This document shows, piece by piece, positions 19,121-44,792 of a DNA stretch of 46,929 bases. The stretch is from a virus (taxonomy: Duplodnaviria > Caudoviricetes), in the IMG/VR virus record IMGVR_UViG_3300017716_001704, positions 1 to 46,929 of that record; one strand, given 5' to 3'. A program made the translations under genes and the position numbers. Below the pieces are notes generated by a model. The model worked only from the letters and a program-made list of their open reading frames with translations, was not told where the DNA came from and searched no databases. Each line of letters opens with the position of its first letter. The stretch's first letter is position 1.

Positions 19121-19477
19121 CTAATCTTCCTCTAGCATGTCTTGCCGAGTTACGTCAACAACCTCGCCGTCGATAATGTCGATGTAGTCCTCGATACCGC
19201 GCTTGTCGTTGATTTCCACCTGCCGCTCCAGCGTTTTGGCAAAGTGTTTGTTGTAGAACTCGGTCTTGTTCTCGTGCGCCCAAACTGCATAAGCAAGCTC
19301 GCCGCCAAGGGCCTCGAACACGAAATTCACCGACCGGCGCGTGCGCTCGCGGCTGGGCACAAGGTTCGCCTCGGGAATGACGGGCATGGCAAAGTCAAGG
19401 AACTTGCGCTCAAGCTCCGCCGCCGCCGCATTCGAGCGGATAATGGCGATTTCCTCCGGGGTGTAGACATGGGACAT
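19121..19477 (-). CDS. terS: Probable terminase small subunit
   Basis: 118 aa, 'FE.LGG......WA..N..EFY' pattern; upstream of terL. Confidence 0.6.
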   Translation of the reverse strand: MSHVYTPEEIAIIRSNAAAAELERKFLDFAMPVIPEANLVPSRERTRRSVNFVFEALGGELAYAVWAHENKTEFYNKHFAKTLERQVEINDKRGIEDYIDIIDGEVVDVTRQDMLEED

Positions 19478-20511: not shown

Positions 20512-21365
20512 TAGAATATCTCCGTAATGATGATGATGCCGTCGCCGCCACGGCCACCTACGCCCCCTGTCGTGCCGCCGCCCCCGCCTCCGCCGCCCGA
20601 GCCGAGCCCGCCGTTGCCGCCTGCGCCGCCGACGCCTGTGTTGCTGGAGCCGCCGCCCGAGCCACCACTGCCGGTGAGGGGTTTCCAGCCCGTGATGCCT
20701 GCAAAACCGTTGTTCGAGCCTGCTGCGCCGCCGGGAATGAGCGGATGGTAGCCTTGGGCCGTAATCAGCCCGCCTGCAAAGTCAGCCGCCGTTGTGCCTG
20801 CACCGCCAGCGCCGCCGCCGACGAGCCTGTTGGTCGTTGAGGCCGGGCCGATAGCGCCAGCGACGGCTCCGCCAGCCGCACCGGCATGCCCGGCGATGGC
20901 TAGGAAAGGCCCGAGTTGCGAGTAGTACGCGTCTGTGCCGATAGCGCCCGCCGCACCCGCAGCGCCCACTGCCGCGCCAGTACCAGTACCCCCAGCGCCG
21001 CCGCCTGCGGCGGAGTAGATGGCAGTTGCAGCCGCGAAAGCCGCCGGACGCAGGGACAGGAAGCTCGCGCCGCCTGCTGCGCTGGGAGCGCCGCCAAGGC
21101 CGACCGACAAATACAGCGTGTCAGGCAGCAGAAGCGTGGGCAGCGTAAGACGGCATAAGCCGCCCGAGCCACCGCCACCGCCACCTCCGCGGGCTGCCGC
21201 GGCAGCAGCCGAGAACCCTGCGCCACCGCCACCGCCACCGCCGATCATCAGGACTTCAATCGCCACCGCGTTTGGCGGGACGTTGTACGCTTGAAGGTCC
21301 GCACCTTTGGAGGTGAAAACCGTCGTGCGCCTGTCGCTTCGGATGTTGGGCTGCGGCGAGAACAT
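20511..21365 (-). CDS. Glycine-rich domain protein (fibre-associated)
   Basis: 'IGGGGGGG' ... 'GG.GGDG.III' polyglycine-type domain. Confidence 0.75.
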   Translation of the reverse strand: MFSPQPNIRSDRRTTVFTSKGADLQAYNVPPNAVAIEVLMIGGGGGGGAGFSAAAAAARGGGGGGGSGGLCRLTLPTLLLPDTLYLSVGLGGAPSAAGGASFLSLRPAAFAAATAIYSAAGGGAGGTGTGAAVGAAGAAGAIGTDAYYSQLGPFLAIAGHAGAAGGAVAGAIGPASTTNRLVGGGAGGAGTTAADFAGGLITAQGYHPLIPGGAAGSNNGFAGITGWKPLTGSGGSGGGSSNTGVGGAGGNGGLGSGGGGGGGGTTGGVGGRGGDGIIIITEIF

Positions 21366-23602: not shown

Positions 23603-24315
23603 GGGGCTGGCCTATGGAAATGATGATTTCGGTTTGTGCCACGAGGCGGCGTGGGGGTCAAGGCTTTCGTGCAAGTCAAGCCCCTGTAGCGGATAAAATC
23701 GACTTAGCCGCTGCGAGGGCTAAGTGTCAGAAGTTTGTATGCGTATTTCTGACATGATAATGCTTTGCCGCCCCGTGTATGTTAGCACCCAGCTCCAAAA
23801 ATTGATATATTCCGTGCCGCCCCGTTACACAGAACAAACCACTCAGCACCGAAGCACCCCCCCCTATGTCCCAGAGCGGCACAGCCGCCGTGGCACGGAG
23901 CTTGCATAGTGACCCACATTGGCACAGCGACCATGCCGCTACGTCACTCCGTGTCCCACTATGACACAGTGATAATGCAATATGCAATATGCATGCCATG
24001 TAACATAGCCGCGCAGTGGCATGGTTCTTGCTAATGCACAATGTGGCCCAGTGTATTACATTGGCACGTACCATTTCGCTACGCCGCTAAGGTACGAGTG
24101 TACCACAGTGGGGCGATCCATTTCGGCACAGCCGGGGTCGAGTGGGCGCGTGTCCTGTAGTGAGACAACCTGATAAGGTGTCCCATAAGTAAATGAAATA
24201 GGGACATATTATCACGTTATCATAACCTAGGTTCGGAGCGGCCTAGCCACCCGGAACACATCGTTCCCCTTTCCATCGTACGACACGAAGCGGCCAAGTG
24301 TCCCAATTACACACA

Positions 24316-24385
24316 GAACATTTCGAGCACAAAACTCGAACAAATACAGAACATAAGCAGCACAAAAGCGGAACAAACCGTGAAC
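24316..24385 (+). repeat. Array of seven G(A/C)AC half-sites in 11-bp phase (alphaproteobacterial LexA box type)
   Basis: GAAC 24316, GCAC 24327, GAAC 24338, GAAC 24349, GCAC 24360, GAAC 24371, GAAC 24382. Confidence 0.8.
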
Positions 24386-24616
24386 CCTCCCAGATCGCGT
24401 TACACGAGGGCTCTGGTACCCATATGGCCTAGACCGCTAATGCTTATGGGTGAGCTTCCTAGGCCCATTAGCAGCATGTCACCTTTTTCGGCTTAGGCGG
24501 CACTTAGATGCATTACGTTATTGACTGGTTAGCTTATCTGTGTCACGCGCGCGCCGCGTTCTTTTCTCCCTTCACCTGATAATGGACCCGGCAAAGTATT
24601 TTCAAAAAAGATGTAT

Positions 24617-24631
24617 GTTCCGCGTTTGTTC
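24617..24631 (+). promoter_or_regulatory. LexA-type box GTTC-N7-GTTC
   Basis: GTTCcgcgtttGTTC matches the alphaproteobacterial SOS box consensus. Confidence 0.7.
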
Positions 24632-24634
24632 CCG

Positions 24635-24662
24635 TTTACATGCTAAGACAGTGCTGTATGGT
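24635..24662 (+). promoter_or_regulatory. Putative early promoter
   Basis: TTTACA-N16-TATGGT with an A/T tract upstream, about 55 nt before the first early gene. Confidence 0.45.
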
Positions 24663-24715: not shown

Positions 24716-25489
24716 ATGCTGCAACCTGACCTGCCTGTGTACCCCGTTCCGGCCCTCTGCCCGCCGGTTCCGGCCCTGATCGCCCGCAAGGCTGATCGCC
24801 CGACCGAAGAACAGTACGGCGATTTTCAGGCTGCCTATGACTACTTCAACAAGGCCCTTTTCGGTGGCAAGCTGCCGCAGTGCCTTATCACGCTGGTTCG
24901 CTCGCGCCGGTTCCGTGGCTACTTCCTGACGGAGGGCTTTATCTCCGCCGATGGCGAGGGCCGGAAAACCGATGAAATCGCGATGAACCCGGAAAGCTTT
25001 GAGGGCCGGACCGATAAGGCCATCCTGTCAACGCTGGTTCACGAGATGTGCCACCTGCAACAGTTCCACTTTGGCAAGCCGTCACCGGGCGGCTACCACA
25101 ACAAGCAGTGGGGCGACTACATGAAAGCCGTCGGCCTGTACCCGTCCAACACTGGCCTGCTTATGGGCAAGGAAACGGGCGTTCAGATGACGCACTATGT
25201 GCTTGAGGGTGAGGCGTTCTGCAAGGCGGCTGACGCACTGATTGCCCAAGGGTGGGCGATCCGTTGGCGCACACCGCAGGACATGGCGCTGAGCGCTGCT
25301 GGCGGCTTGTCCGGGTTCGTGCCCCCGAGCATGCCCCTGCTGATGGGCAAGCGCGCAACGGCTAAGCGTCAGTCCAAGACGCGTTACACATGCCCGGTTA
25401 GCGGCGTAGCGGCTTGGGGCAAGCCCGGCCTGACGCTCTACACGGCGGCAGGTGCAGCGCTGATGCTGGCAATGATTGAGGAGGGCTGA
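24716..25489 (+). CDS. SprT-like zinc metalloprotease domain protein
   Basis: 'YDYFN..LF.G.LP.C.ITL', 'STLVHEMCHL' (HExxH), 'YHNK.W...M..VGL.P'; GGAGA RBS. Confidence 0.85.
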   Translation: MLQPDLPVYPVPALCPPVPALIARKADRPTEEQYGDFQAAYDYFNKALFGGKLPQCLITLVRSRRFRGYFLTEGFISADGEGRKTDEIAMNPESFEGRTDKAILSTLVHEMCHLQQFHFGKPSPGGYHNKQWGDYMKAVGLYPSNTGLLMGKETGVQMTHYVLEGEAFCKAADALIAQGWAIRWRTPQDMALSAAGGLSGFVPPSMPLLMGKRATAKRQSKTRYTCPVSGVAAWGKPGLTLYTAAGAALMLAMIEEG

Positions 25490-31199: not shown

Positions 31200-31750
31200 C
31201 TGACTATCTGACCATAGGCTTTGGCATTGTAAGCGTCTGCGCAGTGCTTGCGGCCATCGTATCCGAGCAGCGGCGCATGGACGCCGTACGGCTCATGAAT
31301 AGGCAGGTCGGCGTGTGGAAAGAGCTTCACGGGGCTGTCGTCTCTGCCAACGAAGAAATCAGCTACCAGCTTAACATCGTACGACGCGACCTGTCGGCGG
31401 AGACACGCAGGGCGGCGGAGATAGTGCGCGAGAACGAGCGGCTGGCCGAACTGGTAGAGCGTGACGGTCGCATACATCGTCTGCGCGCCTTCGACGCCTA
31501 CCGCATGCTGGCGAGCCGTGACCACGACTATGCGAGCAGCATGTCCGAGCAGATCGTCACCTTCCGCGTCAAGCCAACCCGTGAGTTTGCGTTCCAGTAC
31601 CTTATGCCGTGGGACATCGAGCGCGCGCGTCGGGAGTGGCCCCACACATCGCGCGCCATGGCCCGAAAGTTTGCGCGTGAGATATACGCCCTGACTGTGG
31701 CGGAGTGGGAGGAGCAGGTCGTACGACACTTAGCTCCGATGCAGCCATGA
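31196..31750 (+). CDS. Membrane-anchored coiled-coil protein
   Basis: ATG 31196 after GGAGG; N-terminal TM helix. Confidence 0.65.
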   Translation: MTDYLTIGFGIVSVCAVLAAIVSEQRRMDAVRLMNRQVGVWKELHGAVVSANEEISYQLNIVRRDLSAETRRAAEIVRENERLAELVERDGRIHRLRAFDAYRMLASRDHDYASSMSEQIVTFRVKPTREFAFQYLMPWDIERARREWPHTSRAMARKFAREIYALTVAEWEEQVVRHLAPMQP

Positions 31751-32076
31751 AGCCCGCCGAAGCAGCCCGCCTACTGGGGCTCAACCTGCCGACGACGGAG
31801 GAGGCCGTGCAGACGGCGTTCCGAGGCGTGGTGAAGTTCTGCCACCCTGACCATGGGCTCGCGACGTGGCCGTACGACCTAGGCCCTCCGCCGAGCATTG
31901 ACGACATAAAGCTGGCACGCTCTGTGCTGCTGGTGCACGTGAGTGGAGTGAAGCCAGCGTGTAATGTCTGCGGCAGCAGAGGTGTCGTACGCTCGAAAAG
32001 CTTCAAGCTCGTGCCCTGTCCCAAGGGCTGCAAGGTGAAGCCGTTGACACGCCCGCCTGCGCGACGTAAGAGCTAG
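31747..32076 (+). CDS. J-domain (DnaJ-like) protein with CxxC zinc finger
   Basis: 'LLGL.......V..AFR......HPD' and 'C..C.S.G........PC'. Confidence 0.75.
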   Translation: MKPAEAARLLGLNLPTTEEAVQTAFRGVVKFCHPDHGLATWPYDLGPPPSIDDIKLARSVLLVHVSGVKPACNVCGSRGVVRSKSFKLVPCPKGCKVKPLTRPPARRKS

Positions 32077-32102: not shown

Positions 32103-34358
32103 ATGGACCCCCGCTATATTGCCGACCTTGAGCGCAGCGGCATATCCCTCGCTGACGCAGAGGCGTCGGGCATCTTCTACGTAGACAACGCGGCCACCAT
32201 CTTCCCCGAGTTCAAAGCTCTGCCTGCTGTCGTACTCCCGTACTACCACCACACCGACAAGGACGAGAACGGCCTGCTGCCCCTTATGTTCCGGCGCGGC
32301 GGCGTAGAATATCAGTTCGCCCGCGTGCGCTACCTGCGTCTGCCACCGGCTCCCAAGGGCACGAAGCAGCAGCGCTATGACCAGCCGTGGGGCTCTGGCG
32401 TGCAAGCGTACTTCGCGCCGTTCCTCGACTGGCAGCAGGTGTTCGACATCCCGAAGGAGCCTATCTTCATCACCGAGGGCGAGAAGAAAGCCGTCATGGC
32501 GTGCGCGCTGGGATACCCTGTCATCGGACTGGGCGGCGTGTCCAACTTCCGCGACAAGGGCGCTGGCAACGAGCTTCTGCCGATCCTCGCGAGCATACCG
32601 TGGGCCGGTCGTACGGTCTACATCGTGTACGATAGCGACTACAAAACCAACCCTGACGTACGACTTGCTGCCGACCGCCTCGCCGCGGAACTGAGCTTGA
32701 AGCGCGGGGCTAGCGTGAAGCTGATTATGCTCCCGTTCGGCCCGCCCGGACCTGACGGCAAGCCTTCTAAAATGGGCCTTGACGACTTCATCCTCGCGCA
32801 CGGCATCGACGCGCTGGAGGAGCTTATCAAGACCGCGCCGGACCTGCGCAAGAGTGACGCGGAAGTGCTGGCGCTGAATGATAAGGTGGCTTTCATCGAG
32901 AGTGACAACGTCCTGTACGACTTCACAACGCGCGCCTATCTCGACAAGGCGGCGTTCCTGTCCGGGTCCGAGTTCGCGAAGCTGAAGATCACGCAGGCCA
33001 GCGCACAGGGCAACAAGGTCAAGACCACGTCCCTAGCGGCGGAGTGGATGACGCACGAGGCGCACCGTGTCTATCGGGACACATGCTTCGACCCGACAAC
33101 CCTCGACCGTACGGTGCAACGCGAGCAGGGCGGCGTAGCGCTGAACCTGTGGGAGGGCTTGCCCGAGAGTTCGCCCGGCGACGTCAAGCCTTTCCTCGAC
33201 CTGACTGAGTATGTGTTCTCGCTGCTGCCCGAGCAGGACCGCGACCTAGCTATCAAGCTGCTGATTTGGAAGTATCAGAACCCCGACAAGCTGCTGGGTA
33301 TCGCGATCACCCTTATCGGCGTGGGCTTGCAGGGCTCTGGTAAATCCCTGTGGGCCAAGATCGCCAAGGAATGCTTTGGGTCGTACGGCGTAAGCATCCC
33401 TAGTTCCTCGCTGGAGAGTGAGTTCAACCCGTGGCTGGAGCAATGCCTGTTCGTACTGTTTGACGAGGCCGAGCCCAAATATGTGTCGTCCAAGTCTGGA
33501 TCATCGAACCTCAAGGGCTACATCACAGACGCAGACCAGCAGCTTCGCGACCTGTACCGTAAGGGCAGGCAGATCAAGAACCGCTGCATGGTGGTGCTGA
33601 CGTCCAACCACCCCGAGGTGGGCAACCACGAGGAAGGCGACCGCCGCATGTTCGTGGTATCGAGCCCGGCAGCACACCCGGAAGGCGCGGCGTTCTATGA
33701 CCGCGTGCTGGACTGGCGCGACCGCGGCGGCATCAAACACCTCCGGCACTGGCTGCTGTCGTACGACCTAAAGGGCTGGCGTCCGCCGCCGCGCGCACCG
33801 ATGACGGCAGAGAAGCGCATGGCTGCCGCGGAGGGCCGCTCGACCATCGAACGTATCGGCATGCAGATGAAAGAGGCGCACGGCAACTACATCTTATCCA
33901 TGCTCGACCAGATGCGTATCTGGGCTGACAACAACGAGACGAGCAACAACCCGGACCGCGCCGCGCGCGCCCGAGAGATTGGCGACTTCATCCTTAACTG
34001 GCCGATCAGGCCGTACTACACACCTGACGAGCTTGCCATCATGCTGCCCGAGATTGCGGTGTCTCTGGGGTACGGCAGACAACAGGGCGGCACAGTGTCG
34101 GGCCAGATCAGCCGCGACCTGCGCAAGGCACAGATAACGTACTTGCTCAACAAGGATCACCCCGAGGGCTTTCTGTACCAAGGCTACCGCCAACAATTCC
34201 TTGTCGTCTCAGAGTTTGACGAGTACAAGCATAAGCCGATTTCGCAGGCTGACTTTGATCGCATGGCGGGGCAGTGGCCGACGTACGGCCAACACCGGCT
34301 GAAGTCTGGCGAGGCGGCACGAGGATTGCAGATTAGACGGAAACAAGCGGAGGCTTAG
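32103..34358 (+). CDS. Primase-helicase (DUF3854-type Toprim plus P-loop helicase domain)
   Basis: 'ITEGEKKA','GLGGV','IVYDSD','GLDDF' Toprim motifs; 'QGSGKS' Walker A, 'LFDEA', 'TSNH', 'DRR'. Confidence 0.88.
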   Translation: MDPRYIADLERSGISLADAEASGIFYVDNAATIFPEFKALPAVVLPYYHHTDKDENGLLPLMFRRGGVEYQFARVRYLRLPPAPKGTKQQRYDQPWGSGVQAYFAPFLDWQQVFDIPKEPIFITEGEKKAVMACALGYPVIGLGGVSNFRDKGAGNELLPILASIPWAGRTVYIVYDSDYKTNPDVRLAADRLAAELSLKRGASVKLIMLPFGPPGPDGKPSKMGLDDFILAHGIDALEELIKTAPDLRKSDAEVLALNDKVAFIESDNVLYDFTTRAYLDKAAFLSGSEFAKLKITQASAQGNKVKTTSLAAEWMTHEAHRVYRDTCFDPTTLDRTVQREQGGVALNLWEGLPESSPGDVKPFLDLTEYVFSLLPEQDRDLAIKLLIWKYQNPDKLLGIAITLIGVGLQGSGKSLWAKIAKECFGSYGVSIPSSSLESEFNPWLEQCLFVLFDEAEPKYVSSKSGSSNLKGYITDADQQLRDLYRKGRQIKNRCMVVLTSNHPEVGNHEEGDRRMFVVSSPAAHPEGAAFYDRVLDWRDRGGIKHLRHWLLSYDLKGWRPPPRAPMTAEKRMAAAEGRSTIERIGMQMKEAHGNYILSMLDQMRIWADNNETSNNPDRAARAREIGDFILNWPIRPYYTPDELAIMLPEIAVSLGYGRQQGGTVSGQISRDLRKAQITYLLNKDHPEGFLYQGYRQQFLVVSEFDEYKHKPISQADFDRMAGQWPTYGQHRLKSGEAARGLQIRRKQAEA

Positions 34359-35969: not shown

Positions 35970-36236
35970 ATGGCCGACATCGGTCACAACTCAGTCGGCA
36001 TGCAGCAGGCCGCTATCGACAAGCTGCGCTCGCTCGCCGCCAACATCGTGGACTGTGAAGACCGCGCTGCTGAAGTGGCCGAGGAGAAGCGTGCCTACTT
36101 CAAGGAAGCCAAGTCCGCGGGCTATGACGCTGCTGCCCTGCGGCAGGCCATATCGTTCCTCAAGGACGAGGCCGGTCGTACGGAGCAAGAGCAAATCCGC
36201 GACCTGTATATCGAGGCGCTGCGCGAGCGGGGCTAG
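35970..36236 (+). CDS. gapR: GapR/DUF2312-family nucleoid-associated protein
   Basis: 'IGHNS', 'LRS....I...E.......E....F.EAK..GYD...LRQ.I' and 'LY..AL' signature. Confidence 0.8.
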   Translation: MADIGHNSVGMQQAAIDKLRSLAANIVDCEDRAAEVAEEKRAYFKEAKSAGYDAAALRQAISFLKDEAGRTEQEQIRDLYIEALRERG

Positions 36237-42245: not shown

Positions 42246-42279
42246 GGGGCCTTCCTAACCGGGGAGGCCCCTTTTGTTT
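42246..42279 (+). terminator. Intrinsic terminator overlapping the endolysin RBS
   Basis: GGGGCCTTCC/GGGAGGCCCC stem followed by TTTTGTTT. Confidence 0.75.
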
Positions 42280-42747
42280 GCCACTGAACACTTCCGCATG
42301 GCTGAGTTCCTGAAATCCGACACCGCGCTGCGGCTAGGCATTCCGAACATGCCGAGCAAAGAGCACGAGAAGAACCTCCGTCGTACGATGAAGTACATGG
42401 AGGTCGTACGGCAGATGGGCCACGGCCCTATCAAGATCACCTCCGGCTACCGCTGCCCTGTCCTGAACAAGGCCGTCGGCGGCGTGCCTGACAGCGACCA
42501 CGCGCTAGGCTTCGCCTGTGACTTTCTGTTCCCCAAGTGGGCCACGCGCTTCGCCGCGCCGGAGCTTGCCACGGCCCTAGTGGGGCATCCTGACCTGTGG
42601 GTGCCCTTCGACCAGTTCATTCTGGAGGAAGACCGCGGCGTCATGCACATCAGCTTTCACCCCCGCCACCGCCGCCAGATCAAGACGCAGGTCGGCGGGC
42701 CGGGCTCGCCAATCATAGAGGGTATCAAATGGTCTGGAGTGACATAG
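42274..42747 (+). CDS. Endolysin, peptidase M15 family
   Basis: 'ITSGYRC..LN.AVGG...S.H..G.A.D' and 'HISF'; TTG start after GGGGAGG. Confidence 0.88.
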   Translation: MFATEHFRMAEFLKSDTALRLGIPNMPSKEHEKNLRRTMKYMEVVRQMGHGPIKITSGYRCPVLNKAVGGVPDSDHALGFACDFLFPKWATRFAAPELATALVGHPDLWVPFDQFILEEDRGVMHISFHPRHRRQIKTQVGGPGSPIIEGIKWSGVT

Positions 42748-42992: not shown

Positions 42993-43269
42993 CGACTACC
43001 TCACGAAGTCTGCCGTACGGCGCATGTACCCGCCGATCCTGCTGGCCGACGGTGACGTGCTGACGTACGGCTCTGCCTGTCAGATCGTGGAGCACAACGT
43101 CACCTTCTATTGCGAAAACCCCGGCAGTCGCCCGCCGGGGTTTCCAGTCCGTCTGTGTGAGGCCGATCCTACTTCCGTTTGCGAGCAGGTTTTGGGGTCG
43201 CCCGCTTCTTCCGCCGCGCCGGTTTCTTCGCCACCTCCGCGCGCCCTTTCGGTGTCAGTTCGAAGCTAG
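42892..43269 (+). CDS. Outer-membrane spanin lipoprotein (Rz1-like)
   Basis: Signal peptide with lipobox LTSC; overlaps the Rz-like gene in another frame. Confidence 0.65.
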   Translation: MKALKLLLPAAILAFTMFLTSCAAMPSPVGLNADDYLTKSAVRRMYPPILLADGDVLTYGSACQIVEHNVTFYCENPGSRPPGFPVRLCEADPTSVCEQVLGSPASSAAPVSSPPPRALSVSVRS

Positions 43270-43879
43270 GCTCGTCGGCCACGACCCGTACGTCATAGTC
43301 GCCGCTGTAGAACTTCGCCACGTCGGCGGGGCTTACGCCGCACGTCGGCAGCTTGTTGAACGACAGAGGCTGAGCGTGCTTGTGACCGCGCGCCTTCGCC
43401 AGATCGTCCAGCCCCTGTTCGACCCACTGTGAGCCGTGCAGGAACAGCTTGTCCTTGTACCACGTCGCTATGGCAGAGCGGTCGCCGCCCGGTGAAGCAA
43501 GGTCCACGCCAATGTGAAGCTCCTCGGGGAACCGTGAGCCACGGCCCGGCGACATGCCCTCTGCCTCAAGCTCCTCTTGCAGCAGCGCCAGAGCGCGCCA
43601 CGCCAGAGCGGCGGAGTGGCGGACCTTGTACTCCTCGCCGTTGTACGTGACGTACTCGAACGTGCCGCGGTCAACGACGTGTCGTACGATGCAGTCTGCG
43701 TGGTCAGACGAGTTGCCCCGTGACCAGTGCAGGGGCAGGCCGGGGTTATGCTTCTCGTTTCCGATGAAGCTGTGCTCTGCGACGGCTGCCAGAGCCGCCG
43801 GGAAGTAGTCCAGCAGCCCCGCCGCCATGGGCGTGCGCTTTCGCTGGGCCGTATCTTGGGAAATGTAGTTCTCGGTCAT
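43169..43879 (-). CDS. DUF5664-type (dATP/dGTP diphosphohydrolase-like) domain protein with basic tail
   Basis: ATG 43879 after GGAGG; 'P.AL..VA..S..G..KH......W........D...RH ... H.A..AWRALA.LQ'. Confidence 0.7.
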   Translation of the reverse strand: MTENYISQDTAQRKRTPMAAGLLDYFPAALAAVAEHSFIGNEKHNPGLPLHWSRGNSSDHADCIVRHVVDRGTFEYVTYNGEEYKVRHSAALAWRALALLQEELEAEGMSPGRGSRFPEELHIGVDLASPGGDRSAIATWYKDKLFLHGSQWVEQGLDDLAKARGHKHAQPLSFNKLPTCGVSPADVAKFYSGDYDVRVVADEPSFELTPKGRAEVAKKPARRKKRATPKPARKRK

Positions 43880-43932
43880 TAGAGCCTCCGTGGTGCGTTT
43901 GGACCGTTTATGGGACGTGGGTAGCAGACAGG

Positions 43933-44634
43933 TTAGGCGATGCAGTTGTACGGCGACGTGACGCCGAAGTTGTAGACCGGCAGCGGCTTGGCAAATGCCT
44001 TGGCGAGCACAGCATAGGCGTCGAGCAGGTTCAGCCATTCTTTCTTCGCCGTACGCCAGTGTTTCTCCTCGAACAGACTTGGCGGCAGGTCGGGGATGGG
44101 TTCGAAGCCCTCCATGCCGTACCACGGCTGGTCAGCCGGACGCATGACGAAGGTGCGCTCGTTGGCGATGATGCGGCGGTCGTACGCGCGAACGATGTCG
44201 CTCTCGACCAGAGGCACGTCGATGTCGTAGACGCGCATGGCGAGCCGCAGCGCCGCGCTGATCGGGCGGGCCATGGCGCGGAACTCCGGGCAGCGGTCCT
44301 TGATAGGCGTGCGCAGGTCGCCGGTGAAGGCTTCCTCCGCGTCGTGGAACAGAGCGTCGAGGCACAGTACCGGATCGTGTGTGGCGTCCCAGATCGCGAC
44401 CGACAGGGCGACAGAGTGCTGTGCTACGCTGTAGGGGTAGATGGCCGCGCCGCCGTAGCGGTTGATCGTGGCGAGGTGGTGCGCGATGTCTTCCAGAAAG
44501 TAGGGGTTCGTTTCGGCGCTGCCCTCGTTGTAGTAGAACGCCGCGCCGCTATAGGTCTGGCTCCAGTAGTTCGCGTCGGCTGGTTTTTTCTGATCGGCAT
44601 CGAGCTTGTCGATAAGAGTTTTCGTATCCGTCAC
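43933..44634 (-). CDS. HD-domain phosphohydrolase (YfdR/YfbR-like 5'-deoxynucleotidase)
   Basis: 'EDIAH.L....RY.G.....YSVAQHS','ALFHDA.EA..GD..TP.K'; GTG 44634 after GGGAGG. Confidence 0.85.
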   Translation of the reverse strand: MTDTKTLIDKLDADQKKPADANYWSQTYSGAAFYYNEGSAETNPYFLEDIAHHLATINRYGGAAIYPYSVAQHSVALSVAIWDATHDPVLCLDALFHDAEEAFTGDLRTPIKDRCPEFRAMARPISAALRLAMRVYDIDVPLVESDIVRAYDRRIIANERTFVMRPADQPWYGMEGFEPIPDLPPSLFEEKHWRTAKKEWLNLLDAYAVLAKAFAKPLPVYNFGVTSPYNCIA

Positions 44635-44792
44635 CGTGGCCTCCCCGGCTTGGGGTTCGCGTGGTACTCGCGCCCCTGTTTCAGAAACCACCGTGTCCGG
44701 CGGCGCGAGTAGTTCGCTTGCAATTTCTTTGCCGCTGCGCGGAACGCCGCTAGCTCCTCCGGGGTTAGCTCATCAGGAGGAGTATCAAGCAT
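44631..44792 (-). CDS. Small hypothetical protein (53 aa, absent from the ORF track)
   Basis: MLDTPPDELTPEELAAFRAAAKKLQANYSRRRTRWFLKQGREYHANPKPGRPR read by hand; overlaps both neighbours. Confidence 0.5.
   Translation of the reverse strand: MLDTPPDELTPEELAAFRAAAKKLQANYSRRRTRWFLKQGREYHANPKPGRPR

Follow-up and report, generated by a model that had tools for sequence, protein, structure and literature searches.

A conserved chain of seven phased half-sites between the early and late genes of a podophage is probably an operator chain for host LexA

A chain of seven GAAC-like half-sites in exact 11-bp phase lies in the gene-free gap between the early and late blocks of the phage genome. The array is genuine, far beyond chance, is under selection among related phages, and probably forms a chain of operators for the LexA protein of the host. 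Sequence comparisons make binding of LexA to the array in some role fairly likely. The specific role favoured here, a gate borrowed from the host and set on the early and origin region, has about an even chance of being correct.

The window (the whole stretch of DNA analysed, 46,929 nucleotides) is a complete 46.9-kb phage record, and the phage is a podophage. The late block, running leftward from 23602, is structural: its portal, coat and ejection proteins fall into P22-like families in PHROGs and Pfam. The early and replication block runs rightward from 24704 and encodes a SprT-like protease, a primase-helicase, a family A polymerase, a SNF2-type helicase and an endolysin. The array site is the 1.1-kb gap separating these divergent blocks (Table 1). 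Searches of 66 ORFs in PHROGs and 30 ORFs in Pfam found no integrase, repressor or helix-turn-helix family, which bears out the first-pass annotation in its failure to find a repressor or integrase; many small early ORFs have no assigned family. The nearest isolated phages are distant (polymerase ≤38% and TerL ≤41% identity). A small conserved ORF with a weak DnaJ-domain match (31705-32076, E 0.14) immediately precedes the primase gene. A dATP/dGTP diphosphohydrolase domain gene (43169-44691, minus strand) adjoins an HD-type nucleotide phosphatase gene, and this pair may serve nucleotide-pool editing or base modification. Relatives were found via SprT and TerL; the four complete genomes are the window (G000), G001, G002 and G006, and L021 is a close partial contig. 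A pattern scan returned no viral-contig relatives for the first late gene or the primase; orthologues exist, and the scan is therefore insensitive.

Table 1 Positions of the gap elements and of selected genes in the window
Feature	Position	Strand	Remarks
Poly-C motif	23851..23864	+	Kept in G002 and G006; similar runs by eye in G001 and L020
Three sigma-54-type (-24/-12) sites	23891, 23984, 24017 (span 23891..24031)	+, -, +	The only three exact matches in the genome
AT-richest 60-mer of the genome	24165..24224	.	Bounded by an inverted repeat; candidate origin unwinding element
Fixed left flank	24299..24315	.	16-base core identical in the window, L021, G002 and G006
Seven GAAC/GCAC half-sites, exact 11-bp phase	24316..24385	+	Three non-overlapping LexA-type dimer sites possible: 24316, 24338 or 24349, 24371
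Fixed right flank	24386..24405	.	Contains GATC; partly retained in G001 beside its single box
Third perfect GAAC-N7-GAAC box	24617..24631	-	Ends 3 bp before the early-promoter -35
Predicted sigma-70 early promoter	24635..24662	+	-35 and -10 hexamers 9/12 consensus; consensus match only
SprT-like metalloprotease (PF10263)	24716..25489	+	First early gene; Pfam
Primase-helicase (DUF3854 + DUF5906/VapE)	32103..34358	+	PHROGs, Pfam; candidate binder if the repeats are iterons
GapR-like protein (PF10073)	35970..36236	+	Among replication genes; in all four complete genomes
M15 endolysin	42274..42747	+	Closest bacterial relatives alphaproteobacterial; host marker

Stacking of the sequence in 11-bp register from 24316 reproduced the half-site order given by the first-pass annotation (GAAC, GCAC, GAAC, GAAC, GCAC, GAAC, GAAC) with the spacers as quoted there, and a box search recovered its two perfect GAAC-N7-GAAC boxes at 24338 and 24371. 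The GATC one period further on, which had been counted as a possible eighth unit, was rejected as a half-site: it reads CATC in two of three relatives and is part of the fixed right flank. Two further candidates in this flank were discarded, a small ORF whose frame is not kept between G001 and the window and an EcfG-type promoter with the wrong spacing. The earlier suggestion that the half-sites occupy one face of the helix holds only approximately, since the 11-bp phasing accumulates, by arithmetic, a drift of ~100 degrees over six steps relative to a 10.5-bp helix. The longest period-11 chain of GAAC-like words (at most one mismatch) in the window has 8 units, and the runners-up have 3 on the plus strand and 4 on the minus strand. 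Under an array rule accepting any 4-mer at a period of 8-14, with at least 5 of 7 words identical and all within one mismatch, dinucleotide-shuffling the gap 2000 times, and shuffling the window 20 times, never produced a comparable array. A second feature of the window satisfies this rule: within a tail gene, GCCG recurs with a period of 9 at 20574. The window contains 4 perfect GAAC-N7-GAAC boxes against 1.6 expected, a mild enrichment that 7 of 100 shuffles reach, and three of the four fall in this gap.

Alignment to the window covered 79% at 77% identity for G002, 55% at 74% for G006 and 34% at 70% for G001. Conservation in related phages, named as a check by the first-pass annotation, was observed: the array is kept in L021, G002 and G006, and G001 keeps one strong box. 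The arrays of the window and these three relatives all comprise seven half-sites at 11-bp phase between the same flanks, exactly 81 bp apart. One unit has been lost at the left and one gained at the right in G002, where the total is still seven, and within the gap of G006 nothing but the array aligns (77%). G001 shows the right flank and one near-perfect box, with no chain. The 28 half-sites of the four arrays comprise 18 GAAC, 7 GCAC, 2 CAAC and 1 GCTC, 27 of them within one mismatch of GAAC, and one GCAC-first unit is invariant in all four. Because 18 of the 24 spacers are distinct while 27 of 28 half-sites and the 81-bp distance hold, words and geometry are both conserved. The CAAC and GCTC half-sites are found in G002, which has neither a perfect box nor the box near the promoter. 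The early genes of G006 differ from those of the window, with the array retained; an AAA ATPase and vWA-like gene pair, identified by reading the sequence, precedes its diverged SprT gene (L026 3032-5060).

The alphaproteobacterial LexA box is defined as GTTC-N7-GTTC (PMC3323433), and a LexA matrix was counted by hand from 32 Caulobacter boxes (PMC12700426, S6 table), a single reference species. Scored on the spacers alone, the window array has a mean of 3.30 bits, compared with 3.33 bits expected for real boxes. Within-spacer shuffles of the window average -0.4 bits and reach 3.30 at p ~1e-4. The 18 distinct spacers of the family, which are homologous and thus non-independent, average 2.63 bits, a value reached in none of 20000 shuffles; the mean for 7-mers that follow GAAC elsewhere in the window is -4.0 bits. 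In each complete genome the array or its remnant contains the highest-scoring full box (20.3, 20.7, 16.1 and 22.5 vs. 19.5 expected). The best sites in G002 score 15-16, and two sites elsewhere in that genome are nearly equal (15.5 and 14.9). Relaxed matching found five boxes in the window genome, all between 24316 and 24631, and the control gave none. The direct repeat that characterizes the alphaproteobacterial operator is present in perfect form twice in the chain and once at the promoter. Both GCAC and GAAA occur as second half-sites among the Caulobacter boxes (PMC12700426, S6), whereas CAAC and GCTC, and GCAC as a first half-site, are absent from that list. Three alphaproteobacterial genomes showed more matches to the strict pattern than to its control (12 vs. 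3, 22 vs. 0 and 19 vs. 2); outside this class the counts were 6 vs. 12 in a Pseudomonas and 15 vs. 8, a mild excess, in a Burkholderia. The exact 24371 box was found in none of 301 alpha-class and none of 301 gamma-class genomes. One site in a Sphingomonas genome has the same sequence as the 24338 box and was not counted, as it precedes a YD/RHS-repeat gene and no known SOS gene; among the 11 sites followed in that genome, others lie ahead of uvrA, a radical-SAM gene and a YozE gene.

A marker gene, the protein identity of the endolysin to bacterial relatives and CtrA-type sites in G006 indicate indirectly that the host is likely an alphaproteobacterium. The GapR-like protein scores above the Pfam cut-off in all four complete phages. 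Of the 41 genomes of the Sphingomonas class, 31 carried the GapR family, compared with none of 41 of the Pseudomonas class, and among 14 controls it occurred in Caulobacter only; one of the 31 positive genomes (G057) is unpublished, and the result is independent of it. A GapR protein in a phage has a precedent (PMC12185513). Among the best 30 of 80 listed relatives of the endolysin, 29 are titled Alphaproteobacteria, at 43-50% identity. TerL had no prophage relative in the genome collection, protein-cluster look-ups yielded almost no host names, and the Atlas search with the tail fibre yielded none. The LexA identity proposed by the first-pass annotation is strengthened by the spacer profile, the top-scoring site genome-wide, the likely host and the conservation, with replication iterons staying in contention as an improbable alternative.

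The other elements of the gap place the array in a regulatory setting. The third perfect box, overlooked by the first-pass annotation, is oriented opposite to the chain. It is kept in L021 with three of seven spacer bases changed, weak in G006 and absent from G001 and G002; the conservation of eight of eight half-site bases is by itself non-significant at 77% background identity. Left of the array, sigma-54-type sites are concentrated in the gap: all 3 matches of the G000 genome lie there, as do 5 of 9 in G001 and 4 of 7 in G002. They form clusters of 3-5 sites (also at L001 4979-5220 and L006 649-800). The phage ORFs yielded no family of enhancer-binding proteins, and the clusters may act as decoys, as roadblocks or as silent docking sites for the holoenzyme. 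CtrA-type sites replace the sigma-54-type sites in G006 (L026 1781-2133), where 3 of 3 near-perfect genome matches lie in the gap. This exchange suggests that the gap serves as a panel of sites for host regulators. In G000, G002 and G006 the AT-richest 60-mer is found 80-160 bp to the left of the array, and in G001 ~300 bp to the right of the remnant. The sequence of its inverted repeat differs among relatives with a constant layout (L006 462-568 and L026 2040-2100), and the inverted repeat of G002 has near-perfect arms of ~20 bp. Since this stretch with its inverted repeats adjoins the array in three genomes, the gap probably contains a replication origin.

In the favoured mechanism, the host SOS repressor would stand in for a repressor of the phage's own. 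Up to three host LexA dimers on the seven half-sites would hold the early control region and the probable origin region shut, and the gate would open when LexA is cleaved or outnumbered. Release could be triggered by host DNA damage, by RecA activation through phage replication or by rising genome copy number. In the window and L021, LexA on the separate inverted box may repress the early promoter, and the upstream chain may cooperate with this box through cooperative loading or looping over ~240 bp. Alternatively, the chain may cover an element beside the AT-rich stretch. Counting against the gate, the end of the chain is ~240 bp from the sole predicted promoter, with no promoter predicted inside the chain, and the promoter box is present in only two of the five phages compared. 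The G002 array without a perfect box, the frequency of iterons among 11-bp GAAC chains, the single box of most Caulobacter SOS promoters and the missing cluster in 15 isolated phages also weigh against it.

The strongest competing explanation, which we regard as rather unlikely, is that the repeats are replication-origin iterons. A phage protein, most likely the primase-helicase, would follow a P4-alpha-like logic in binding the chain and melting the adjacent AT-rich stretch bounded by inverted repeats, and the likeness to LexA boxes would be convergent. Viral stretches with four GAAC words at 11-bp phase number ~1700 by estimate and range from 24 to 73% GC. The first 80 of 123 such loci were scanned through their spanning or flanking ORFs (106 proteins in Pfam and 75 in PHROGs), and at 35 of the 80 the array lies inside an ORF matching O-like, DnaD-like or primosomal initiator families. 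Phase and GAAC alone therefore often mean iterons. DUF6291 was matched at 4 more of the 80 loci, and DUF1376 ORFs bear such arrays too. At one locus, L103, the array comes after a primase that shares its PHROG with the primase of the window, and the fixed geometry of the present family is compatible with an origin. The helically phased direct repeats and the adjacent AT-rich element of an iteron origin are both seen here (the latter at 24165, and also in G002 and G006), whereas no cognate initiator holds or adjoins the repeats: 8 kb separate the array from the primase, and O-like or DnaD-like initiators are absent from the PHROGs and Pfam scans. A single-sequence fold of the primase C-terminus had a mean pLDDT of 41.9 and was unusable. 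On the LexA spacer matrix the generic arrays average -2.4 bits, compared with 1.7-3.3 bits in this family, and only 5 of 121 reach the score of the window. Moreover, G001 has an orthologous primase (42%) yet carries one near-perfect LexA box and no chain, and the lone inverted box at the -35 suits an operator better. The two readings can be combined, with LexA on the chain beside an origin.

The first-pass annotation offered titration of LexA on an equal footing with a borrowed repressor. As a sponge, the sites would soak up LexA in trans during amplification of the phage genome and turn on SOS functions of the host, which seems improbable. The array has more sites than a normal SOS promoter and is located away from the promoter. 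In addition, five other phage contigs (G008-G012; L036, L056/L057, L100, L129 and L130), selected by score, carry 9, 7, 7, 10 and 5 perfect boxes, with controls of 0, 0, 0, 0 and 1. These are unrelated phages, their boxes mostly cluster in gene-free gaps, and two of the clusters lie upstream of terminase. G011 has two chains in a duplicated context ~660 bp apart. The nearest TerL isolates for the two contigs tested (≤39% and ≤48%) include many alphaproteobacterial phages. However, the five contigs were chosen by score. The box cluster was found in none of 15 isolated phages tested, 11 of which have alphaproteobacterial hosts; SIO1 has no box, and only chance matches were obtained when the array and the L036 cluster were compared with isolated phages by BLAST. 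A sponge would be expected to drift toward more and better sites, whereas each chain takes at most three dimers, several half-sites are suboptimal, the number is fixed at seven in all four arrays and G001 has one box. The fixed count, the suboptimal words and the one-box relative thus appear to fit a gate acting in cis better than a sponge, and the titration claim is weakened in favour of the borrowed repressor.

A genome-end or packaging element, in which the small terminase binds phased repeats near the physical ends in a gene-free gap, is very unlikely. In cobaviruses the terminal repeats are found in an ORF-free stretch that separates two modules and start with a G+C-rich tract (PMC6775973). 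A conserved poly-C motif, itself a candidate genome-end or packaging signal by analogy, is located 450 bp left of the array, on the upstream side of the late block. The G009 and G010 clusters upstream of terminase are near contig ends, and 2 of 80 generic arrays precede terS-like genes. However, the candidate terS (19121-19477, assigned by position and conservation) is ~5 kb from the array, and the LexA spacer profile would be left unexplained. The more distant contig L020, whose TerL is 66% identical, has a poly-C run flanked by short tandem repeats (1888-1905) and, on reading, no chain. The four genomes are contigs only, and their terminal overlaps of 114-123 bp, each beginning at a different gene, resemble assembly overlaps. 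Least probable is another host or phage protein reading direct repeats, or an intrinsic bend from phased A-tracts: the spacers begin A-rich and several small early ORFs lack a family, but the GAAC/GCAC words are better conserved than the A-tracts and the scans yielded no helix-turn-helix protein.

Beyond the borrowed LexA gate itself, a broader picture can be proposed, although it is doubtful as a whole. In a lytic-type family of alphaproteobacterial phages, a polymer of LexA dimers would plug the early promoter and the origin, and replication would be licensed by the SOS repressor, as a damage-gated lytic deferment or a copy-number timer. The gap would be a swappable sensor panel for LexA, sigma-54 and CtrA, and chained direct-repeat SOS boxes, found again in unrelated phages, would represent a class of control element not yet described. 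LexA control of temperate phages and clustered host-regulator sites for CtrA are already documented. A literature search, with most subscription journals outside its coverage, found no report of alphaproteobacterial LexA boxes arranged as a chain in a phage. If true, a chained direct-repeat SOS array in phages where no repressor or integrase was found would extend the sensing of host state to apparently lytic phages. The array is also a ready substrate for the question of whether an alphaproteobacterial LexA that reads direct repeats polymerises along phased half-sites.

Comparisons with known systems show partial likenesses, the closest precedents being temperate phages under LexA control and CtrA clusters in gap regions. 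Phage origin iterons of the lambda O-like and DnaD-like kinds and of P4 alpha, among which GAAC at 11 bp is common, share helically phased direct repeats beside an AT-rich stretch, whereas the present array is neither in nor beside an initiator gene and its spacers are variable and LexA-like. The LexA boxes of Vibrio CTX-phi are palindromic. In Bacillus tectivirus GIL01 (PMC4551915) and CTX-phi (via PMC9437464), host LexA acts at the phage control region, replacing the phage repressor or working beside it. Those phages are temperate, with palindromic boxes at promoters, whereas the chain here consists of direct repeats in a podophage with its own DNA polymerase and no integrase found; no gp7-like helper was identified in this phage. 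Clusters of CtrA sites in gap or terminal-repeat regions of alphaproteobacterial phages are associated with "lytic deferment" and have EMSA support (PMC9437464). They are likewise host-regulator sites in a ~1-kb gap between divergent blocks with gain and loss among relatives. The present sites differ in being of LexA type with sigma-54-type neighbours, and G006 has CtrA-type sites in the same gap. The sites themselves resemble those of the LexA regulon of Caulobacter crescentus (PMC12700426, PMC3323433), which shares the half-sites, the 7-bp spacer, its base profile and two variant half-sites. Host promoters mostly have one box (~97% of Caulobacter SOS promoters carry a single one, PMC12700426), whereas the phage has seven chained half-sites between fixed flanks, at a distance from its predicted promoter.
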